Both the position numbers and the translations under genes were made by a program. The notes under the pieces were generated by a model. It was not told where the DNA came from. It was given only the letters and a program-made list of their open reading frames with translations, and searched no databases. A stretch of 53,316 nt of DNA, counting the filler, from Dimargaris cristalligena (lineage: Eukaryota): the NCBI GenBank assembly GCA_003614675.1. It is 3 parts of 3 records of this genome, joined end to end, with 100 filler letters (N's around TTAATTAATTAA, not from the genome) between each part and the next. Parts side by side here need not be neighbours in the genome. Positions count along the whole stretch, not along the records: positions 35,662 to 53,316 come from ML002792.1; 2 more parts are not named here. One strand, 5' to 3'. Numbering within the stretch: the stretch's first letter is position 1; every line of letters begins with the position of its first letter. Below, piece by piece: positions 17,760 through 53,316 of this stretch.

Positions 17760-17859
17760 NNNNNNNNNNNNNNNNNNNNNNNNNNNNNNNNNNNNNNNNN
17801 NNNTTAATTAATTAANNNNNNNNNNNNNNNNNNNNNNNNNNNNNNNNNNNNNNNNNNNN
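17760..17859. other. Artificial contig spacer N44-TTAATTAATTAA-N44
   Basis: 100-nt spacer with stops in all six frames; identical to the spacer at 35562. Confidence 0.97.
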
Positions 17860-35561: not shown

Positions 35562-35661
35562 NNNNNNNNNNNNNNNNNNNNNNNNNNNNNNNNNNNNNNN
35601 NNNNNTTAATTAATTAANNNNNNNNNNNNNNNNNNNNNNNNNNNNNNNNNNNNNNNNNNNN
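35562..35661. other. Artificial contig spacer N44-TTAATTAATTAA-N44
   Basis: Same structure as 17760-17859. Confidence 0.97.
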
Positions 35662-39398: not shown

Positions 39399-41629
39399 TT
39401 ACCCGAAAATCTTCAGGCCATCGGTACTTGTAATCGCCTCCTCCGTTTCCGGACTGTCCTCCTCCTCGTTGTCGTCGTCGTCGCTGCGCTGGTTGCTGTT
39501 GCTAGCCTGGCCCTGCTCTAACCGGTCCATTTCAGCCTGGGCCAAATCGACATCGGAATCCGCCTGGGCGGGCTGTTCCTCCTGGATCGCCGCGATCTTC
39601 TGACCTAATAAAGTAGCATAAAGCTCATCGACCATATCCGCGTGCCAACCCGAAGTACCCATGGGGGCCATGAAGTTTTGCAATTTTTCGTGAACGTGGT
39701 AACGCAGGCGACGGCCCTTACTGGCCTTGTTATCCACGGTACGGGACCGCCGTTCCCGTTCTTGGGTGGCTTGCTGTTGTTTGAGGGCCACCCACCGTTT
39801 ACCGAGGGCCACCGGATCGTCGGTGGTGGCCATCCGACTCTCAATCAGTTCCCGGAGTAGGGTTTGGTAGAAATCATGGTCGTCGAAGATTTCGGGGTGG
39901 TAGTCCTTGCCGTCGTCGCCCACGGATGTGGTACTAGTAGTGGTAGTGGTGGTGGTGATTGACGGGGAAGCATCGGGCAGAAGGGGGGGATAGTCGGTCC
40001 GCTTCAGTTGGGTACGGCGCAGGAGACGATCCCGATCCTGGAGGGTTTCCTGGGCCTGGTGGACGGCACTCTGGTTGAAGGCCCGCAGTTTCTTGTTCAG
40101 GGCAATACCGGAGGCGGCTTGGACCTTGGCACTCCACTTATCCAGGACGTCGTTCCGGTAGGGTACGAAGCGCTGGTGAAGTTGGTCCAGGGCCGCCCAG
40201 TCCATGGGGCCATCGGCGGAGCGGGCCAGTTTAGTCGGGGGGGAGTCAGTATCATTCTCGTTCTCATTGTCCGAGGATGCCGAGTCGCTGGAGGACCGGG
40301 GTCGCTTGAGGTGGCTCAGTTGATCGGTGGACACCCCGGCGTCCTGGTTCCGCTCCCACAGCCGGATCCGCAAGTCGACCAAGTCCCGTAGCACCGAGCC
40401 CGTCTTCTGTTTAAGTTCGTTCCATAGGGGATTTTGGTGCAGGGACTCAGTCTCCGCTTCGGCCAGCCGGTCCGGGGTGGGAAGGCAGTTGGCCATGACC
40501 AGGGCCTTTTGGAGTCGGATCCGGGAATCCAGGAACCCGTTCCAGCGTTTGATTTGCCGCATAACGGCCCGGCCTTTGGTCATTTCCCCAAGGGAACCTT
40601 GGGCGAGTTGCTGCAGCATGGCCTTTTCCTGTTCCTCAATCTCGGCCAGTTGCTTCTGGAGTTTGGTGCGGGTAGCGGTTGGCTGGGCCTCTTCGGCGTC
40701 ACCCATTGCGCTCGACGACTCCAATTCGTCACCGGATTCGCCCTCGTCGCTGGATTCTTCCTCGCTTCCCATGCTCTCTTCCAGATCACTGTCGTCTGTG
40801 GCTTGGTCGGCTGATGCGCCTTCCTCTGAGTCAGACCAGTTCACTTCCGCATCGGGGGAGGCCCCCATGGCCATTACTTCGTCGGAACTATCTTGGAAAC
40901 CTTCGGACCCGGCATCACTTTGGGTGTCATCATTGCCATTGCTGTCGCTAGTGTCGTTTCCGCCAACCTCGATATCAAGTTCACTTTCAACTTCACTGAC
41001 ACTCTCCAATTCACTATCGGACTGGTTAAGTTGATAGAGCGACTTCCGGCTAACCCGTTGGCCAACATATTTAGGGTCGGAAAGGGTAACGTTCTCGTCT
41101 TTCCGAAGTTTACTTTTGCTATGACCATCGCGAACAGGTAGGGGCGGGAATAGATAATATCAGGGGTATAATATGGAATTAGACTGGGTAGAGATATCAA
41201 ATTAGGAGGATGAATAGGGTTGCTGGCAGGGGACCCGACGGGTTCCGGGTATGGTTCAGTAGAAGTTGAATATTAACATTTCATGGAGGGGGGACTTACC
41301 CGACTTTCACGTAGTGGTCGCGTTTGGCGTCAACACCGGTATCCTCGTCCGAGGCGGAGCCGATATCAGTGGCATCCGAATCAGGCTTATCCAGGCGTTC
41401 GAAATCCTCGGGATCAAAATCTGGAATGACAAAATTGATAATAACAGGGAGGTGTTAGCTCATTGAAATTGGTTTTCTATAATTGCCGTACGGGGTAGGA
41501 AGAGAAGTGGGGCCCGTATACATAAGCCGATATCGGGATAGGCTCTGATGGGTATTAATGGCGGACATGTATACCTTCAGGGGTGGGGTCCAAAAAATTG
41601 GCCAGTTGCTTCTTCAGGGATTTGGACAT
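39399..41629 (-). CDS. BFR2: BFR2/AATF (SSU processome factor), 3 exons: 41629-41575, 41420-41300, 41118-39399 (631 aa)
   Basis: MSKSLKKQLA...DFDPED, HYVKVGKSKLR, PKYVGQRVSR, RIRLQKAL, IFDDHDFYQTLLRELIE and KASKGRRLRYHVHEKLQNFMAP (TRAUB domain). Confidence 0.95.
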
Positions 41630-43903: not shown

Positions 43904-46388
43904 ATGACTGTCGCAAGTTTAGTCGACGTAGAGAATCAGTGCCCCGTACCGGTTTGTTCCCCGGCGGCACGCCGTGACGAGGACTGTGTCGAGACTCATC
44001 ACGGGGAAATGGTTGCGGATCCATACCGCTGGCTGGAGGATCCCCGTTCCTCCGAAACCGCCGAATTCATCGATGCCCAGGCGAGGTTCGCCCAGGAGTA
44101 TCTGGACCAGCAGCAAGAGCGCCCACGCTTTAAGGATCTGTAAGTTATACTTAGTGACGTCAAGGTCATCCTGGCAAATCAACCGATACAGTGACCACAC
44201 TTCCAGCCCAAAGAACACAGCGAAATTTACGCTTTCGTATTGATTTCTAATCGTTAAACAGCATTATTATAATCCACCCTCTTGTCCCCCTAACAGACTC
44301 ACGTCCCTAGAAGATTACGAGTATCGATCTGCCCCCAGCCGTCACGGTGACTATTATTATTTTTCCGGCAACTCGGGACTTCAGGCCAAGTCCATTGTCT
44401 ATCAACAATCCTCGTTCGATACCGAGCCCGTGGTTTTTATCGACCCCAACACCTTTTCCGAATCTGGCAATGTCTCACTCGCGGGCTACCCCTTCAGCCC
44501 CGATGGCACGGTGGCGGCGGTCGTTTTAACCGAAAACGGTAGCGATTGGCGCAGTGTTCGACTCATGCGGGCCGACCGACCCGGTGAGTTGGGGCCAGTT
44601 GAGATAACCGGGCTGAAATTCAACTCTCCCTATTGGACCCGTGATAATCAAGGTTTTTTTTATACCCGTTACATGGACCCCGCCAAGGCCAACCTTGATG
44701 GCCAGACGACGGAGTCTTCCACGCATGGTACCATTTACTACCACCGTGTTGGCACCCCGCAAACTCAGGACCAGCTGATCTACGCGGAACCTGATCAGCC
44801 GAACCTTTTACATAGTGTGGTGCTCTCGGACGATGATGACCAGCGGTTCCTGCTATTGTATAGCTGCCAAGGGGCCAGCAACAGCCACCGGGTCATGGTA
44901 TGGGACCGGAGTACCGAGAATGGAACGATTCAATCACCCGTTTTTCGACCTATCATATCTGATTTTAAGTGCGCTTACAAATTCATCTCCGCCCATGGCC
45001 CGTGCTTATACTTCATCACCCAGCTAGACGCCCCTCGTTGGCGGATTGTCAAGTATGACGTGGACCAGCCCGCGGATGGATTTCAAAACGTCATACCTCA
45101 GCATCCGACCGATATCCTCAAAGCGGCCGCTATTGCGTACCACCAGTATTTGGTGGTATTATACCAACGCCATGCCGTGGGTCAACTGTCTTTACACGAC
45201 CGGGAGACGGGCAAGTGTTTAGGTACCATTCGGGTCCCGTCCAGTAGCATTTCCGGTATACTCTGTAAGCGCCGATTCCCCACCTTTTACTTTGCGGCCG
45301 CCTCGTCTTTACGGCCGGTTCAGCTGTTACAATACACATTCCCCGAAGGTGCCTGGGAGGAGGCGAGCCTCACCTCGCGAAACCCTGCCCTGAGTCTTAA
45401 TTTCCAAAGCCAAGTGTCCCCGAAGCCAGCCCCACTGCCCCTGCCCCCCGCTGCTCCAGCCGAACCCCCTGCACTGACACCAGAGGTCTATTTCACCGGT
45501 CTCTCTAAATGCAATTTCGACCCTTCGAAATATGAGACCCGCCAGGTCTTCTACCCCAGCTACGACGGAACCCTAATTCCGCTGTTCGTTACCTGTCGCC
45601 GGGATCTCGTGCTGGACGGCAGTCACCCCGCCATACTCTATGCCTACGGGGGTTTCGGCTCATCTGTATCCCCCGGTTACAACATATCGCGCCTGGCGTT
45701 TATGCTGGCCTTTGACGGTGTGATTGTCGTCGCTGGTATTCGTGGTGGTGGAGAGTACGGCCAGACGTGGCACGACGCCGGCAAAGGCCACAGCAAACAG
45801 ACCTGTTTCGACGATTTCCAGGCCGCGGCCCAGTGGTTAGTCGCCCAGGGCTACACCTGTCCCCGCCTGCTTGCTATCCGTGGGGCATCCAACGGCGGGC
45901 TCCTAGTGGGGGCCTGCATTAACCAGCGACCCGACCTATTCGGAGCCGCGATCCCTGAGGTAGGGGTGCACGATATGTTGCGATTCCACCGCTTTACCAT
46001 TGGCCACGCCTGGACCTCGGAATACGGCGATCCCAACGATGCCACCGATTTTGCCTACATCCGGCGTTACTCCCCCCTGCATAATATCCAGACCAGTCGC
46101 CCGTACCCCGCCATTCTGCTGTTGACCGCCGACCACGATAATCGAGTGTCACCCCTCCACTCATTTAAATTCGCGGCCGCCCTTCAACACGCCGTAGCCA
46201 AATCTTCCCCGGGAAGCACGCGGGCCCAGCCGATTTTACTGAAGGTGGGCCGCAATAGTGGCCACGGAGGGCCAACTACCATTCAGAAATCCATTGACTA
46301 CGAGGTGGATGTCCTGTGTTTCTTGGCCTTGGTGCTACAGCAATCGGTCCAAAAGACTTCGCCCATGGAAGTCATCCCCGATAACTAA
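43904..46388 (+). CDS. Prolyl oligopeptidase (S9A), 2 exons: 43904-44139, 44297-46388 (775 aa)
   Basis: VADPYRWLEDP, YAYGGF, IRGGGEYG, nucleophile GASNGG, Asp in DHDNRV and His in GHGG. GTAAGT...CTAACAG intron. Confidence 0.95.
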
Positions 46389-47455: not shown

Positions 47456-50400
47456 ATGTCCGAATACATTGACTATTTTCTTCAACCCCACCGTCTTGAC
47501 GAAGACGTAAGTACTGCTCGACTACCATTAAAGGATCCCAGTCGTATTGGAGATTCAGGCCATTGTTTTCCAGCCTGAAGGCTTGCCCCTGGCCAGCGGT
47601 CGGCACATGCTCCTCCGCCACGTTTATTGTCCTTTTCCATGTCTAAACTTCCCCGGGGTCCCCACTAACCCCTTTCTCTTTGGATACCTTACCCACATTC
47701 CCTTCCACTCCAGTTTCCGGAACTTGACCCATGGGTGCCTCTTGCTGACCCCAAGGGTCTCCTGCTCCAGTCCAAGGCCCGGCGAATGGTGACCGATTTA
47801 CTGGCGGTGTCCCAATTCCCGGACTTCCATGCCCGCCATCCGCTCAATCCAGGCCCCACCGTGCCAACTACCCCCATGGCGTCCCCACTGTTGTCACCCG
47901 CCGCCCACATGCTCCGCATTCCTACCCATGTCTCCAAAGTATGGCTGTACCGGGACCCGGCCAGTGGCTTGCCCCTGGCAGATAAATCACCCTTTGCCTT
48001 CCGTTCCAATGCGGTTCTGTTAGCTACCCGCAAGGGAAGTGGTAGTAGTCCTCCCCACCCATCAACAGCGGGGGGACAGCCCTCCGAAGACGGGGGCGAC
48101 GCCAATGGCGTGGCTAGCTCACCCATGACTCGCAATCTCTCGGCCGAGACGAAGAATTCGGCCCGGGGATTAGGCGATACCGGCGCCCGGGATACCATGG
48201 AGTTGACGGCGAAACAGAAACGCTACCTCGGACTGGCCGCTGAACTCATCGAGCGCAGCAAACTGCCCCTCGACTTCCTACTCCAGGAAATCTCGCCCCA
48301 GGTTACGGTGACCCTGTTTGCCTTTATTTTAGCCACCCGGGATGGTCAGTTTATGTAAGTGGCCAAATCAGGAAGACTGGAATCCTTCAAGACATACGCT
48401 GAAATACCAGTACATTCCATTTTGGAGAGACCGAAAAAAACAACCAACTAACTCTCTATACCCACCTATGCCTGTACCGCTACTACTCCGCGTACCTCGC
48501 ACAATATTGATATATATCTATATATATATATAAATGTAAAGCAACTCCCGGCTATCCAAAAGGCCTTTCGCCCATGTACTGGTGCTCTACCATCGCTGGG
48601 TGCTCCATTGCTACGGCAACGATCGTTTGCCCCTGGTCGACTGGACTACCCCGACAGATTGCCATTTCGCCTTTGTAACCGATGCGTTAGTTCACCTGGA
48701 CGCGCTCGTCACTACCTCCACCAATGGAGCCCGGCAGCCCGGGCTCGCACGTTTGCGCTTTCAATACCGATTGGAGTGCGCCGAGTACTTAATGGCGGCC
48801 CTTCGGTTCGACCATGCCATTCCCTTTTTCGAGGCCAGCGTAGCTATCCTACCCGAACAGGGGGAGCCGGGCTTCGATCCCCAGTCAATTCGTCAACATA
48901 TTGAGGATTGCCTGGCCGCTTGTCAGGCGGCGGCCGCGGTAATGGGCACGGGGACCAACCGAAGTAAATCATTACCGCATCCCTCCCTAGCCACCTGCCC
49001 TCCCTCCGGCTACATTTCGTTTATGGAACAAACCATTGCTATGGTGAAGGAGGCCCCCCTCGGGGATTCATTGCTACAGCTCCAAATCGGGGCCATGCCG
49101 GCCATGGTTTACGTGCTGCTCAATGATCATGCGCACGAGTACTTGTCGCAGGCCTACCGGTACCATCTGGTGCAGCGGCTTGTTTCCGCTAAACTTGTGG
49201 TCATCGGATGTGTGGTTGATTTAACCAATAGCCTATTGGGGTTTTATGAGTCGTTTGGTAAGTCCCCTCGCTGACTGTTTATTTATTTATTATTAATATT
49301 GCCTAGGTGGGTTTTTTGAAAATTCACTAGACACGTTCGACTAATGTATGCGTCGTCTATTAGATTGTATGTGGCATAGTGCCTGACATTAGCCACTCCA
49401 CTGGCTATGCCTATAATTAACCCATCGGCCTCTATACCTTTTCTAATCTTCTTAAATATCGCTAGGTCTGGACCTTAAGCTACAGCCCTGCACTATTGAG
49501 TCCTTCCGGGATTCGTTTCCCGTCGACAAGCAATTATTACTCAAGACCTACATGTCCATTGTTACCAATTACAGTGCCTGGAATCCCCCTGTTAGAGAGA
49601 CGGTCATCAACCACCCCCGATTTGCCTGGGCGCTCGCCTCCCTGATTGATCGCTGTGAGTCCTTTCTGAACGAAGGGGTAGCTGCTTCCATCATCGAGGT
49701 GCCCGGGGATGCTGTATTGCGGGAACAATTCCAGAAAATCCGGGCCCGGCGGTTCCAACAATCCACCGCTATTCCATTGACCCCGGAAATTGTCGCACCC
49801 TCGTCTTACAAGCCCCTGGAGACGGCCAGCACCACTCTTTTCAATCTGGCTACGGATCTTATGGTTAAGGAATGTTACCCGTTGGCGGGCAGTATTTATT
49901 ACCGCATATCTACTATGTTGAACTCCTCCCCCAACTTGGGGTTGGACCCGGCCAGCGACCCCCGGCGGCCCACCGTTAATGCCGAGTCGGTAGATTTTTT
50001 CCTGAAACTCAACCGGCTGTTGTGGGCCCTGGCGGACCTGGCGGGCAACCGCACCGCGATCCGGGCAGTACCTCCCGGCAAAGAAGCGGACATTTGGACC
50101 ATAAACCTACCCCAGGTGCTGCAATCCCATGCTACCACCCCGTTCCCCATTGTACTCCGACTGGCCCTCTACTGCCTCCACTTTCGCGAATTCTCCCGCT
50201 TTATCCAGGTGATCCAATGGATTTCAGGCAACCGAACTAGCTTCATTCAGGATGGTAAGTTGAAAACGATTCGTACCCCGTTGTTGTGTTATTATCGTTA
50301 CCGGTACCTGGCATTTCCCTATTTGTAGAGTCTACAAGGCCCACAGTCATGTTGAAGGCATACATTATTTAACCAATGTGTTGTTCTACATTCACTGCGA

Positions 50401-52158
50401 ATTCTCACTACTACTATGTCCCGATAGAATCCCAAATGCGAGCGCTCGGTGTGCTCCCGGGTATCGGACTGATTATGGAGAAATTCCGCCAAGCTGCCCC
50501 AGGTTTAGAGGAACAATTATTCAACCCGGACGGGTCAGTATGCTTGGACTTTCAGGGAATGTCGGCCCTCGTGAAGAATATCCCTCCGCCGGTCCTTATT
50601 GAGATTCGCAAATCAGCCTGCCAAACTGTTCAGATAGTCAGGCAACTGGGCCCCCAAACCCGGGCCCTACTATTCCAGAGTCTGTCCCGGTACCTACAGG
50701 ACCCATTCACCCTGTTTTTGCTGATGGGCGTGTACACCGGGCTAACCAAATGGCCGTGTCTAGGCCTGGCCATAGAGCAATTGGGCTGTCTACCCTTAAT
50801 TACGGCGAATCCCCAGGAGGCCCAGCCCGCTTTGAAGGACGACTATTGGGTCCAGTGGGTAGCAGCTCTACACACTCCAGACACCACCATGCCCCAGATT
50901 TTAGACACGGCTGCGGAATTGCTCGAAGTGATTGGAGAGGCCTTGGTGAAAACAACCACCGCTACGGAACTGCTGCCACCACACCGCTTCCCACTACCCA
51001 ATACTCTTCGCTGTCGAATCTTACTTTTATTAGGACATATCCACCACCTCAACCGAAACTATCGGGCCTGCATCGGCCATTTCGTCACGGCCTTCGATAA
51101 CTACCTGGCCTGGCAGGTACCGCCCTCCAACTCCCTGATCGCCGGGGAGCGCCCTAAACCTGCCAATGGTGGTGGTGGTTTAACCCCTCCGCCTCCCCAC
51201 ACCAGCCCTCTCCTGGGTATGGTGGCCTGGCAGGACTACTACCTTATGCCCGCCTACCTTTCGTGCATGGAGTTAGGCGACCCTTTCATGGCCGTTCTCG
51301 TGGGTCAGCTCTCGTTGGTACCCGAGGCCCCGACCATGTTTTCATTTCTCGATCGGTACTTTGCGCTTCCCGGGGGGCCACTGGAACAAAGTCGCTGGGA
51401 ACTTATCTGGGACCTAAGAATCCTAGAATACGTTATATGTAAGTGCCTTTGTCAATAAGGGGGGGGGAGTGTGATCTGCCCTTACTAGTGTCTCACATTG
51501 GTCCAGTCCAATTCACTACCTGGGAATTGTTGACCTATGGCTTCTATGAATAGCCCATTTCTCATTGTTGTCAGTATGGAAAATTCCGTTTATTGAATGC
51601 ATACTACGGATAATGTTTTATTAACCCCCGCTGTTTTTATACACGTATTACATGCCTATCTGGACTGCACTTTGGCCAATCGTCCCCACCTCTTCCCTCT
51701 ATCGGGCATTTTAGACTACGCAAGCCGAAACGGCCACGACGAGTTGGCCCGAAAACTGGTAAGTTCGCCTACTTTGGCTATATTGGAACATACTTTATTT
51801 TATGTTAAATAGTTCCTCCCGAACTTGCTCAGTCTTGGCACCCTACTATAACACTTATCTAATTCGGTCCCTTTCTTCCTCTATGCTTTACTGTCATACT
51901 TAGACAACCCATATTGCCACCCTGTCTGCCAGCCGGTCGATTGAAAAGCCCTGGCTAACTGATAGCTGGTTACGCCAGAAACTCTGGGCTTATTTGAGCA
52001 CTGCTCTTTCTGCTTTAATTAATCGGGACCCCAGCGATAAACCAATGCTGCTTCACAACGGTGGGACACGCCCAAAACCTCGAGCGGATCTAAACAACTC
52101 CCTCACTCCTTTACATGGCAAGCCACCAGTCACTGCCCATGTACAGCAGAAAGATTAG
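47456..52158 (+). CDS. INTS8: Integrator complex subunit 8-like protein, 7 exons: 47456-47506, 47714-48354, 48542-49257, 49466-50254, 50428-51438, 51715-51758, 51904-52158 (1168 aa)
   Basis: All six donors are GTAAGT and the phases are consistent. N-terminal YIDYFL, LYHRWVL, a TPR-like LLGHIHHLNRNYRACIGHF and C-terminal IWDLRILEYVIYYASRNG resemble INTS8 as recalled (WFEFLL; IWDVTILEYLTYLHHKRG). The gene model is more certain than the name. Confidence 0.72.
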
Positions 52159-52914
52159 CGAACCTATTTTTAACCCACCCATTTCAGCCTACTCATGCAC
52201 CATAGACATTGTCAGGCTGATTTGAAGGATTTTTTTAAATGTGTATTGTCTATTCTAAAGTGACTGTATCAGGATCAAGACTGAACATCACCGCTGCTTA
52301 ATAAACGAGAATGTATTTTAATCCAAAAATGAATACAGCTAGCATTGTAATAACAGCGCTCATTCAGGTCGTCTCTATGCTATTTTAAGCACAAAACTAA
52401 ATCATATTCGGAACCTAATTTTGTATGGGCCTAGGCGACCGGTTAATAAAATACCCGCACAGGTATCTTCGTTTCGCGTGAGACAATCTCGTATACTTTT
52501 TGGTGAAACCGGGTTTCCCTTTCTATTAGTCTGGCATCCGCTGGTTGTCAACCTTAGCTCTAGTTCCAGGGTATTATCGCCTTTAGGAATAGGGAAATAT
52601 CCTTTACCTGACACCTCATTCAATCGCCATGCCTGGTTGCTCGGAGAATTACTAAGAGCATAGGAGGCTGACCCTAATGCAAGGAAGTGACGCCTTATTT
52701 AGTATACCATTTGTAATACATAGTTTATAGCCAATCCAAGTTTCCAAACCTGGTTTATTATTTATCATATTCACTATCACCATTCTAGGCTGTTATTACG
52801 CCTGCCCATGTTCGTGTAATACCCACAAATTACTCAACGTGCTTAGCCACCATGTTCTTACGCCTGGGCCATTTTATCAAGTCATGACCCGGATATGTTT
52901 ATCCGTGGGAGTCC

Positions 52915-53316
52915 ATGTCATTCGCCACCCGTTTCTCCCCGGCATCGATCCAACATGAGCGCCGTGACAATCATCCCGCTGATAGTGGCCATTTTACGCT
53001 CGATGAAATCACAGCCTCCGAGATGGTCAATACCGCCATTGCTTCAGTATCTATTGGGGGGAGCGCTCTAATCATAAGTGTCTATTTACTCGGTCTGTTG
53101 ACACGCCCCGAACTCGTTCGACGATCTACTTTAACGCTGTTGACCATCAAAAGCACGGCCAATATTGTGCTCAGCGCCATGTACTTCGTCAATGACTCCG
53201 TAAAAAGCAGGTTAGGCTGCAGTGTTATTTTTACCTTTTGGCTATGGTTCTTACTATTCTCCCTGTTTGTCCAAGTCCTCATGGTCCTTAATCTTTATTA
53301 CGTGTTTGTATTGAGG
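52915..53316 (+). CDS. 7-TM GPCR-like protein (cAMP-receptor-like/Git3 type), N-terminal part; runs off the window
   Basis: Open frame with TM1 (AIASVSIGGSALIISVYLL), TM2, and Cys-led TM3 (GCSVIFTFWLWFLLFSLFVQVLMVLNLYYVFV). Absent from the ORF track because there is no stop codon. Confidence 0.72.
   Translation, partial: MSFATRFSPASIQHERRDNHPADSGHFTLDEITASEMVNTAIASVSIGGSALIISVYLLGLLTRPELVRRSTLTLLTIKSTANIVLSAMYFVNDSVKSRLGCSVIFTFWLWFLLFSLFVQVLMVLNLYYVFVLR

Follow-up and report, generated by a model that had tools for sequence, protein, structure and literature searches.

Integrator has been called metazoan-specific (10.1101/2023.03.05.531184, 2023) and yeast is reported to lack it (PMC10312363). 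Can a fungal gene then encode one of its subunits, and if so, what would that subunit do? The question is raised by a gene of Dimargaris cristalligena (GenBank assembly GCA_003614675.1) that occupies positions 47456-52158 (+) of the window, the whole stretch of 53,316 nucleotides analysed here. The protein that it encodes is very probably INTS8 in a very diverged form, and the genome carries at least seven Integrator subunits, namely, INTS2, 3, 6, 7, 8, 9, and 11. The gene product is probably an INTS8 orthologue that works as in animals, within an Integrator complex that processes small nuclear RNAs (snRNAs).

Identity of the protein

The assignment to INTS8 is based on the agreement of sequence-profile, language-model, and fold searches, no single one of which is decisive. 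INTS8 headed the results of each search with credible matches (Pfam and profile searches, ESM Atlas, and AlphaFold models submitted to Foldseek), which bears out the INTS8-like character originally proposed for the gene. Among the 24,736 Pfam families scanned at E <= 10, TPR_INTS8 was the sole match to the protein (11.8 bits, E of 0.095, PF25756 positions 381-458). The same family scored 43 bits in the Tieghemiomyces homologue P0006, and 27.0 and 26.9 bits in the Dispira homologues P0009 and P0002, respectively, at a curated cut-off of 27. A profile built from four C-terminal pieces (A2) matched human INTS8 alone among 177,635 sequences of the PDB (E of 0.0014, human residues 839-949), in an alignment that takes in the WD..ILEY block. 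In the other PDB sequence searches, a match to an O-methyltransferase (E of 0.06) and similar ones were taken as chance. The region concerned is the following:

51261..51924 (+), C-terminal INTS8 signature region, aa 1011-1091, exons 5-7, covered by the PF25756 and profile A2 alignments

The C-terminal stretches quoted in the original prediction were both recovered here: SCMELGDPFMAVLVGQL begins at residue 1011 of the 1168-aa protein, and IWDLRILEYVIYYASRNG crosses the exon 5/6 junction.

In the ESM Atlas the top match was a TPR_INTS8 cluster with a score of 0.96 (215 of 256 features), a value attained by roughly 1 in 100 shuffled proteins. This cluster has 96 members, mostly from oomycetes, 96% of which carry PF25756. 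Two AlphaFold models of the protein are almost wholly helical and of low confidence (mean predicted local distance difference test [pLDDT] values of 49.9 and 47.8). For the first model, Foldseek placed at ranks 1-5 chains of Integrator structures with the length and numbering of INTS8, and the fold match of this model to INTS8 reached Z 13.8-14.3 (root mean square deviation [rmsd] of ~30, 502-556 aligned residues), followed by a next match at Z 9.2. INTS8 held ranks 1-3 for the second model. It was also first of 48,161 entries in a fold search independent of Foldseek (Z 11.8, rmsd 17.9, 524 aligned residues; next match 9.6). Within the limits of these low-confidence models the match is colinear, starting at model residues 178-230 and extending from about residue 95-118 of human INTS8 through its last residue, 995.

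Human INTS8 (7cun_H, 7pks_h, 8rc4_h, 7ycx_H; PF25756) and the fungal protein thus share an all-helical solenoid of similar size, the C-terminal block at human residues 839-949, and an aromatic-rich motif in the first helix. They differ in that identity in structural alignments is only 10-14%, that the fungal protein stays below the Pfam cut-off, that its motif is YIDYFL and not WFEF and is placed at the very N-terminus, and that it has a Pro/Ser-rich stretch (aa ~58-182) and an extra C-terminal tail. The oomycete and other non-animal INTS8 clusters are its nearest neighbours in the ESM Atlas at the score of 0.96, but phmmer detects no direct sequence similarity to them.

Close relatives are few. 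Among 1.84 billion representatives, phmmer returned seven proteins at E <= 0.001, including the query; the six non-self matches are unnamed proteins, all from Dimargaritales (Dispira, Tieghemiomyces, and Dimargaris). Word-indexed homologue searches, with the 8000 best candidates scored, gave one, one, and three matches, again all from Dimargaritales, and contributed an extra Dispira homologue. A Dispira homologue could be aligned over the full length at 29% identity. Since the homologue searches returned Dimargaritales only, there was no INTS8 from another order to align, and this confinement points to a gene that is conserved and intact yet too diverged for direct sequence links outside its own order. 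The gene is an ancestral retention, handed down from an early ancestor of the eukaryotes with extensive divergence since. Part of this was already known: databases hold a precomputed PF25756 label on related Dispira proteins, so that INTS8 domain labels on fungal relatives, like the oomycete-rich INTS8 cluster, precede this work.

Integrator subunits in the genome

Rather than a genome empty of other Integrator subunits, INTS9 and INTS11 genes distinct from those of CPSF100 and CPSF73 were found, together with INTS2, 3, 6, and 7. The four beta-CASP genes lie on four contigs and were assigned by best matches: the INTS11 gene scores 547 bits to INTS11 versus 236 to CPSF73, the INTS9 gene matches INTS9 only, the CPSF73 gene scores 467 versus 223 bits, and the CPSF100 gene was assigned through CPSF100_C. 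The C-terminal domain of INTS11 reaches 26.8 bits at a cut-off of 27. Eight further Pfam models were tried in a loose first-pass search of this 2220-contig assembly, and four matched above their cut-offs: INTS6 (122.6 bits), INTS2 (250.7 bits, with the gene divided between two contigs), INTS7 (211.6 bits), and INTS3 (149.8 bits). A weak second INTS7_N match (L011:127-3129 [+]) proved to be the coatomer gamma subunit (gamma-COP) and was dropped. Together with the beta-CASP genes, the search covered INTS1-7, INTS9, and INTS11.

INTS11 has kept the residues at human positions 157, 178, 203, 392, and 414, of which 157, 178, 392, and 414 presumably have active-site roles. Its first 127 residues, which would include the HxHxDH motif, fall outside the locus L001, which ends at C1183:7748, apparently the contig end. 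Mutation of glutamate 203 renders human INTS11 catalytically dead (PMC7980224). By analogy with animals, the subunits very probably assemble into one complex.

snRNA genes and their promoters

Rfam identified at least two U2 genes (best 47 of 655 candidates scored) and at least one U1 gene (best 41 of 554), and across the window and three 10-kb regions it reported only these three known snRNA genes. A new finding is that all three share the word TCCCACAAG, which is like the upstream sequence element (USE) of plants:

L015:1415-1423, L016:1428-1436, and L017:1422-1430, TCCCACAAG, upstream of both U2 genes and of U1

The word was first noticed in the two U2 genes and was confirmed by the independently found U1 gene. 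It stands at -86, -73, and -79, with a TATA-like box ~34, 23, and 34 nt further downstream, at about -36 to -43. A shared 9-mer arose in 0 of 5000 random triples and in 0 of 5000 shuffles; a stretch near the start shared by the U2 genes was excluded from this test because the two are paralogues. TCCCACAAG does not occur in 88 kb of background, and each 10-kb region has a single match to a relaxed pattern. In the form WTCCCACAAG, at -73 to -86, the upstream word resembles the plant USE, described as RTCCCACATCG at about -70 (PMC9845283) and as bound by SNAPc (PMC8287931). The SNAPc search, which was for SNAPC3, revealed a SNAPC3 (SNAP50) gene whose domain is complete and scores 197-201 bits (200.8 in one scan), above the cut-off (L018:1492-3420 [-], G000:C158). 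The frame adjoining it (L018:3-806 [-]) resembles an ALG6-type glucosyltransferase. Together, these features suggest snRNA promoters of a SNAPc-type, USE-like kind.

The closest comparison is with the USE-TATA promoters and the DSP complex of plants, with which the fungus shares the upstream word, the TATA-like box, and a SNAPc subunit. The plant complex is described as having only INTS3/4/7/9/11-like subunits (PMC10533338), whereas the fungus additionally has INTS2, 6, and 8. In contrast to the fungal promoters with their TATA-like box, animal Sm-class snRNA promoters are TATA-less (PMC2582628).

The 3' side is less clear. The animal 3' box has the consensus GTTTN0-3AAARNNAGA, ~10 nt downstream of the gene (PMC2582628). 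A plant-type 3' box pattern matched only one of the three genes. Just past each of the three snRNA genes lies a C/T-rich run followed by a TAA(A/C)AAA-like sequence, which is not significant with three genes and is a candidate fungal 3' signal:

L015:1697-1715, L016:1697-1712, and L017:1675-1705, C/T-rich plus TAA(A/C)AAA-like tract, after both U2 genes and U1

The N-terminal helix and a possible phosphatase arm

In animals, INTS2, 5, 6, and 8 position the phosphatase (PMC11062913), and a four-residue INTS8 motif, WFEF, is needed to recruit the PP2A A-C dimer (PMC8091971). A preprint cautions that mutating WFEF may have effects beyond the binding of PP2A (10.1101/2023.03.05.531184). The fungal candidate for this motif is located in the first helix, at the extreme N-terminus as originally described:

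47465..47482 (+), YIDYFL motif, aa 4-9, candidate counterpart of the PP2A-recruiting WFEF motif

Residues Y4, Y7, F8, L9, P11, and D17 are invariant in all five aligned N-termini, and the relatives carry the variants YLTYFL (twice), YIQYFL, and YITYFL. YIDYFL and human WFEF were aligned by no tool (ESM Atlas, profile, and fold searches); an ESM Atlas search with residues 1-60 gave no usable match, and the fold alignments miss the YIDYFL helix because they start at residue 178 or later, after a helix-free stretch of ~125 residues. On the INTS6 side (L006:2172-3365 [+], G000:C13), the beta-barrel and the FGNP(Y/F)..DK stretch just before the inhibitory loop, as defined in PMC11062913, are kept. 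The idea that the lineage retains an Integrator-PP2A module therefore stands as far as the Integrator genes are concerned, and its PP2A part is a resemblance between motifs for which none of the tools gave confirmation. On the animal analogy, PP2A recruitment through the N-terminal helix is slightly favoured.

Proposed mechanism and alternative explanations

Gene content and the promoter word are observations on this genome, and the assembly, cleavage, and docking steps below are modelled on the animal system. SNAPc would read the promoter composed of TCCCACAAG and the TATA-like box and start RNA polymerase II (Pol II) on snRNA genes, where Integrator would join it. INTS8, a long TPR-like solenoid, and a counterpart of INTS5 would pair up as the Integrator shoulder on a core of INTS2 and INTS7. 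INTS11 and INTS9 would cut the nascent RNA just beyond the mature end and so generate the snRNA 3' end, while INTS8, INTS5, and INTS6 would substitute for a B subunit in holding the PP2A A-C dimer; the docked PP2A would dephosphorylate Pol II and aid termination. Cleavage of snRNA 3' ends by the fungal Integrator is likely on this analogy. Like metazoan INTAC, the fungus has INTS2, 3, 6, 7, 8, 9, and 11 as genes apart from CPSF73 and CPSF100; unlike it, INTS1, 4, and 5 were not detected in the loose search, the DEAD loop of INTS6 is degenerate, and no animal 3' box lies within 60 nt after the three snRNA genes.

Several observations weigh against this interpretation at its different levels. 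As to identity, the 11.8 bits of the protein itself lie below the PF25756 cut-off; in one Pfam scan, four of six homologues (fragments) had no INTS8 match, and five single exons matched no Pfam family at all. Four other PDB sequence searches, with exon 5, with the whole-length profiles A1 and A3, and with the N-terminal homologue P0005, missed INTS8. The models have pLDDT values below 50, and their matches have TM-scores (template modelling scores) of 0.14-0.29 and an rmsd of 18-36 Å. The Z of 11.8 is under the value of ~13 that helical repeats can reach by common arrangement, and one INTS8 chain appeared as far down as rank 47 in the second-model Foldseek search. The protein could be an unrelated TPR protein, of the ZIP4/SPO22, CTR9, SKI3, or INTS10 type, that looks like INTS8 by chance; its subthreshold Pfam score fits this, as do the Atlas scores of INTS10 (0.92) and ZIP4 (0.84-0.85) and the positions of CTR9 and SKI3 next in Foldseek. 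Such a coincidence is scarcely credible, given that INTS8 comes first in sequence-profile, language-model, and structure searches alike, that a homologue exceeds the curated Pfam cut-off, and that colinearity with human INTS8 extends to its final residue.

If the protein is INTS8, the question becomes which of the animal functions it serves. The main rival to the animal-like reading is a nuclease-only Integrator, in which INTS8 belongs to a working nuclease whose phosphatase arm has decayed, the protein being a scaffold without PP2A docking. The INTS6 inhibitory loop, DEAD at human residues 629-632, aligns to DNVN; the acidic WFEF position is unconserved, being D in one and T or Q in four of the five N-termini; the ~125-aa stretch breaks up the N-terminal helices, with fold alignments beginning past it; and the phosphatase module is dispensable for Drosophila snRNA processing (10.1101/2023.03.05.531184). 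Against such decay stand the invariance of Y4, Y7, F8, and L9 among proteins that are just 29-44% identical and the retention of the INTS6 beta-barrel and FGNP(Y/F)..DK stretch, and we regard it as rather unlikely. Another possibility is that the subunits act mainly outside snRNA processing, for instance in Pol II attenuation at protein-coding genes or in DNA repair of the INTS3/INTS6 SOSS type, with snRNA 3' ends made in another way. This would agree with the exact animal 3' box being found in none of the three snRNA genes within 60 nt downstream, which runs counter to what the original prediction looked for, with the lack of a significant shared downstream word (the longest, of 5 nt, is at chance level, being reached by ~16% of random triples), and with the zero candidates for INTS5_C, INTS5_N, INTS4_8HBD, and INTS1_RP2B-bd in an insensitive search of a fragmented assembly. 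The latter blanks weigh little because INTS8 itself scores just 11.8 bits against its own family, and absence of INTS1, 4, and 5 cannot be claimed from a loose first-pass search on 2220 contigs. Moreover, SNAPC3 and a USE-like element are retained alongside Integrator, animals couple 3' end formation to the snRNA promoter (PMC2582628), and plants make snRNA ends with a reduced Integrator (PMC10533338), which leaves a role mainly outside snRNA processing highly improbable.

Implications for Integrator evolution

Integrator has so far had no fungal model because it is seen as metazoan and is missing in yeast; plants are reported to have a reduced Integrator, and yeast to use Nrd1-Nab3-Sen1 instead (PMC10533338). 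Within the full-text literature covered, which leaves aside most subscription papers and some supplements, neither a fungal Integrator nor a fungal USE was described, and passages of PMC2942849, PMC10406608, PMC10700540, PMC10312363, PMC7980224, 10.1101/2023.02.19.529146, and PMC8287931 yielded nothing on such an Integrator. The retention in this lineage that was originally suggested is supported but is not special to it, in view of oomycete INTS8, plant Integrator, and Pfam-labelled fungal relatives. The loss of Integrator is presumably general across all Dikarya.

The presence of at least seven subunits, including those of the INTS6/INTS8 arm, next to SNAPc-type promoters suggests that it is the yeasts that represent the derived condition. 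A broader proposal, to which we give somewhat less than even weight, is that early-diverging fungi keep the whole ancestral snRNA unit, that is, a SNAPc-read USE (TCCCACAAG) with TATA and an Integrator with an INTS6/INTS8 PP2A arm that cuts without an animal-type 3' box, and that this unit was lost as a block towards the yeasts and replaced by Nrd1-Nab3-Sen1. If so, the phosphatase arm and the USE word would be older than the divergence of animals, fungi, and plants from one another, and Integrator genetics would gain a microbial model. Should transformable relatives share the set, a microbe could serve to ask which of two tasks Integrator had first, snRNA 3' cleavage or Pol II attenuation, whether the docking of PP2A is older than NELF-type pausing, and which signal stands in for the 3' box. 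Taken alone, the gene corrects a "hypothetical protein" label and a single splice site; it is of more use as evidence that an intact SNAPc-Integrator snRNA system persists in early-diverging fungi.

Gene model and neighbouring genes

The originally described gene of 7 exons and 1168 aa was confirmed by in silico splicing, which yields an uninterrupted frame of 3507 nt (1168 codons and the stop); all six introns (145-276 nt) start with GTAAGT and end with AG. The GC content is 0.51-0.60 in exons 2-7 versus 0.38-0.44 in introns 2-6, and 0.43 in exon 1 and 0.53 in intron 1. The exons are as follows:

47456..47506 (+), exon 1, aa 1-17, start codon and first helix
47714..48354 (+), exon 2, aa 18-231, helix, Pro/Ser-rich stretch, then helices
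48542..49257 (+), exon 3, aa 231-470, helical repeats
49466..50254 (+), exon 4, aa 470-733, helical repeats, alignable to homologues from Dispira and Tieghemiomyces
50428..51438 (+), exon 5, aa 733-1070, TPR-like repeats, identical to P0001 across 336 aa
51715..51758 (+), exon 6, aa 1070-1084, continuous with homologues P0002, P0006, and P0007
51904..52158 (+), exon 7, aa 1085-1168 and stop, last helix and tail

The public record P0001 ("hypothetical protein BJ085DRAFT_34710", Dimargaris cristalligena, 1161 aa) differs from this model solely in the intron-2 acceptor, which it places in frame at 48563 instead of 48542. The 1168-aa form with the acceptor at 48542 is more likely than the database model because P0001 is 7 residues shorter at this point than the three homologues that span the acceptor (P0002, P0009, and P0004). 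The C-terminal tail of ~45 aa in exon 7 has no counterpart in the aligned homologues. The Pro/Ser-rich stretch of ~125 aa (47834-48260) is predicted to be without helices and is partly conserved in Dimargaritales. Conservation within this order is good in the first half of the stretch (aa 51-110), and several SP/TP sites are present that could be kinase targets.

The window consists of three contigs joined by N spacers at 17760-17859 and 35562-35661 (TTAATTAATTAA linker), so gene order across them has no meaning; the INTS8 gene is on the third contig (~35662 to 53316). Downstream of it, at 52888-53316 (+), an open frame of at least 143 aa with hydrophobic, membrane-like stretches and no Pfam match runs off the window end. 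The upstream neighbour, at 44244-46388 (+), encodes a prolyl oligopeptidase (Pfam S9_N and S9) for which no link to Integrator was seen, and an AATF/Bfr2-type protein (Pfam AATF-Che1 and TRAUB) is encoded at 39402-41159 (-).

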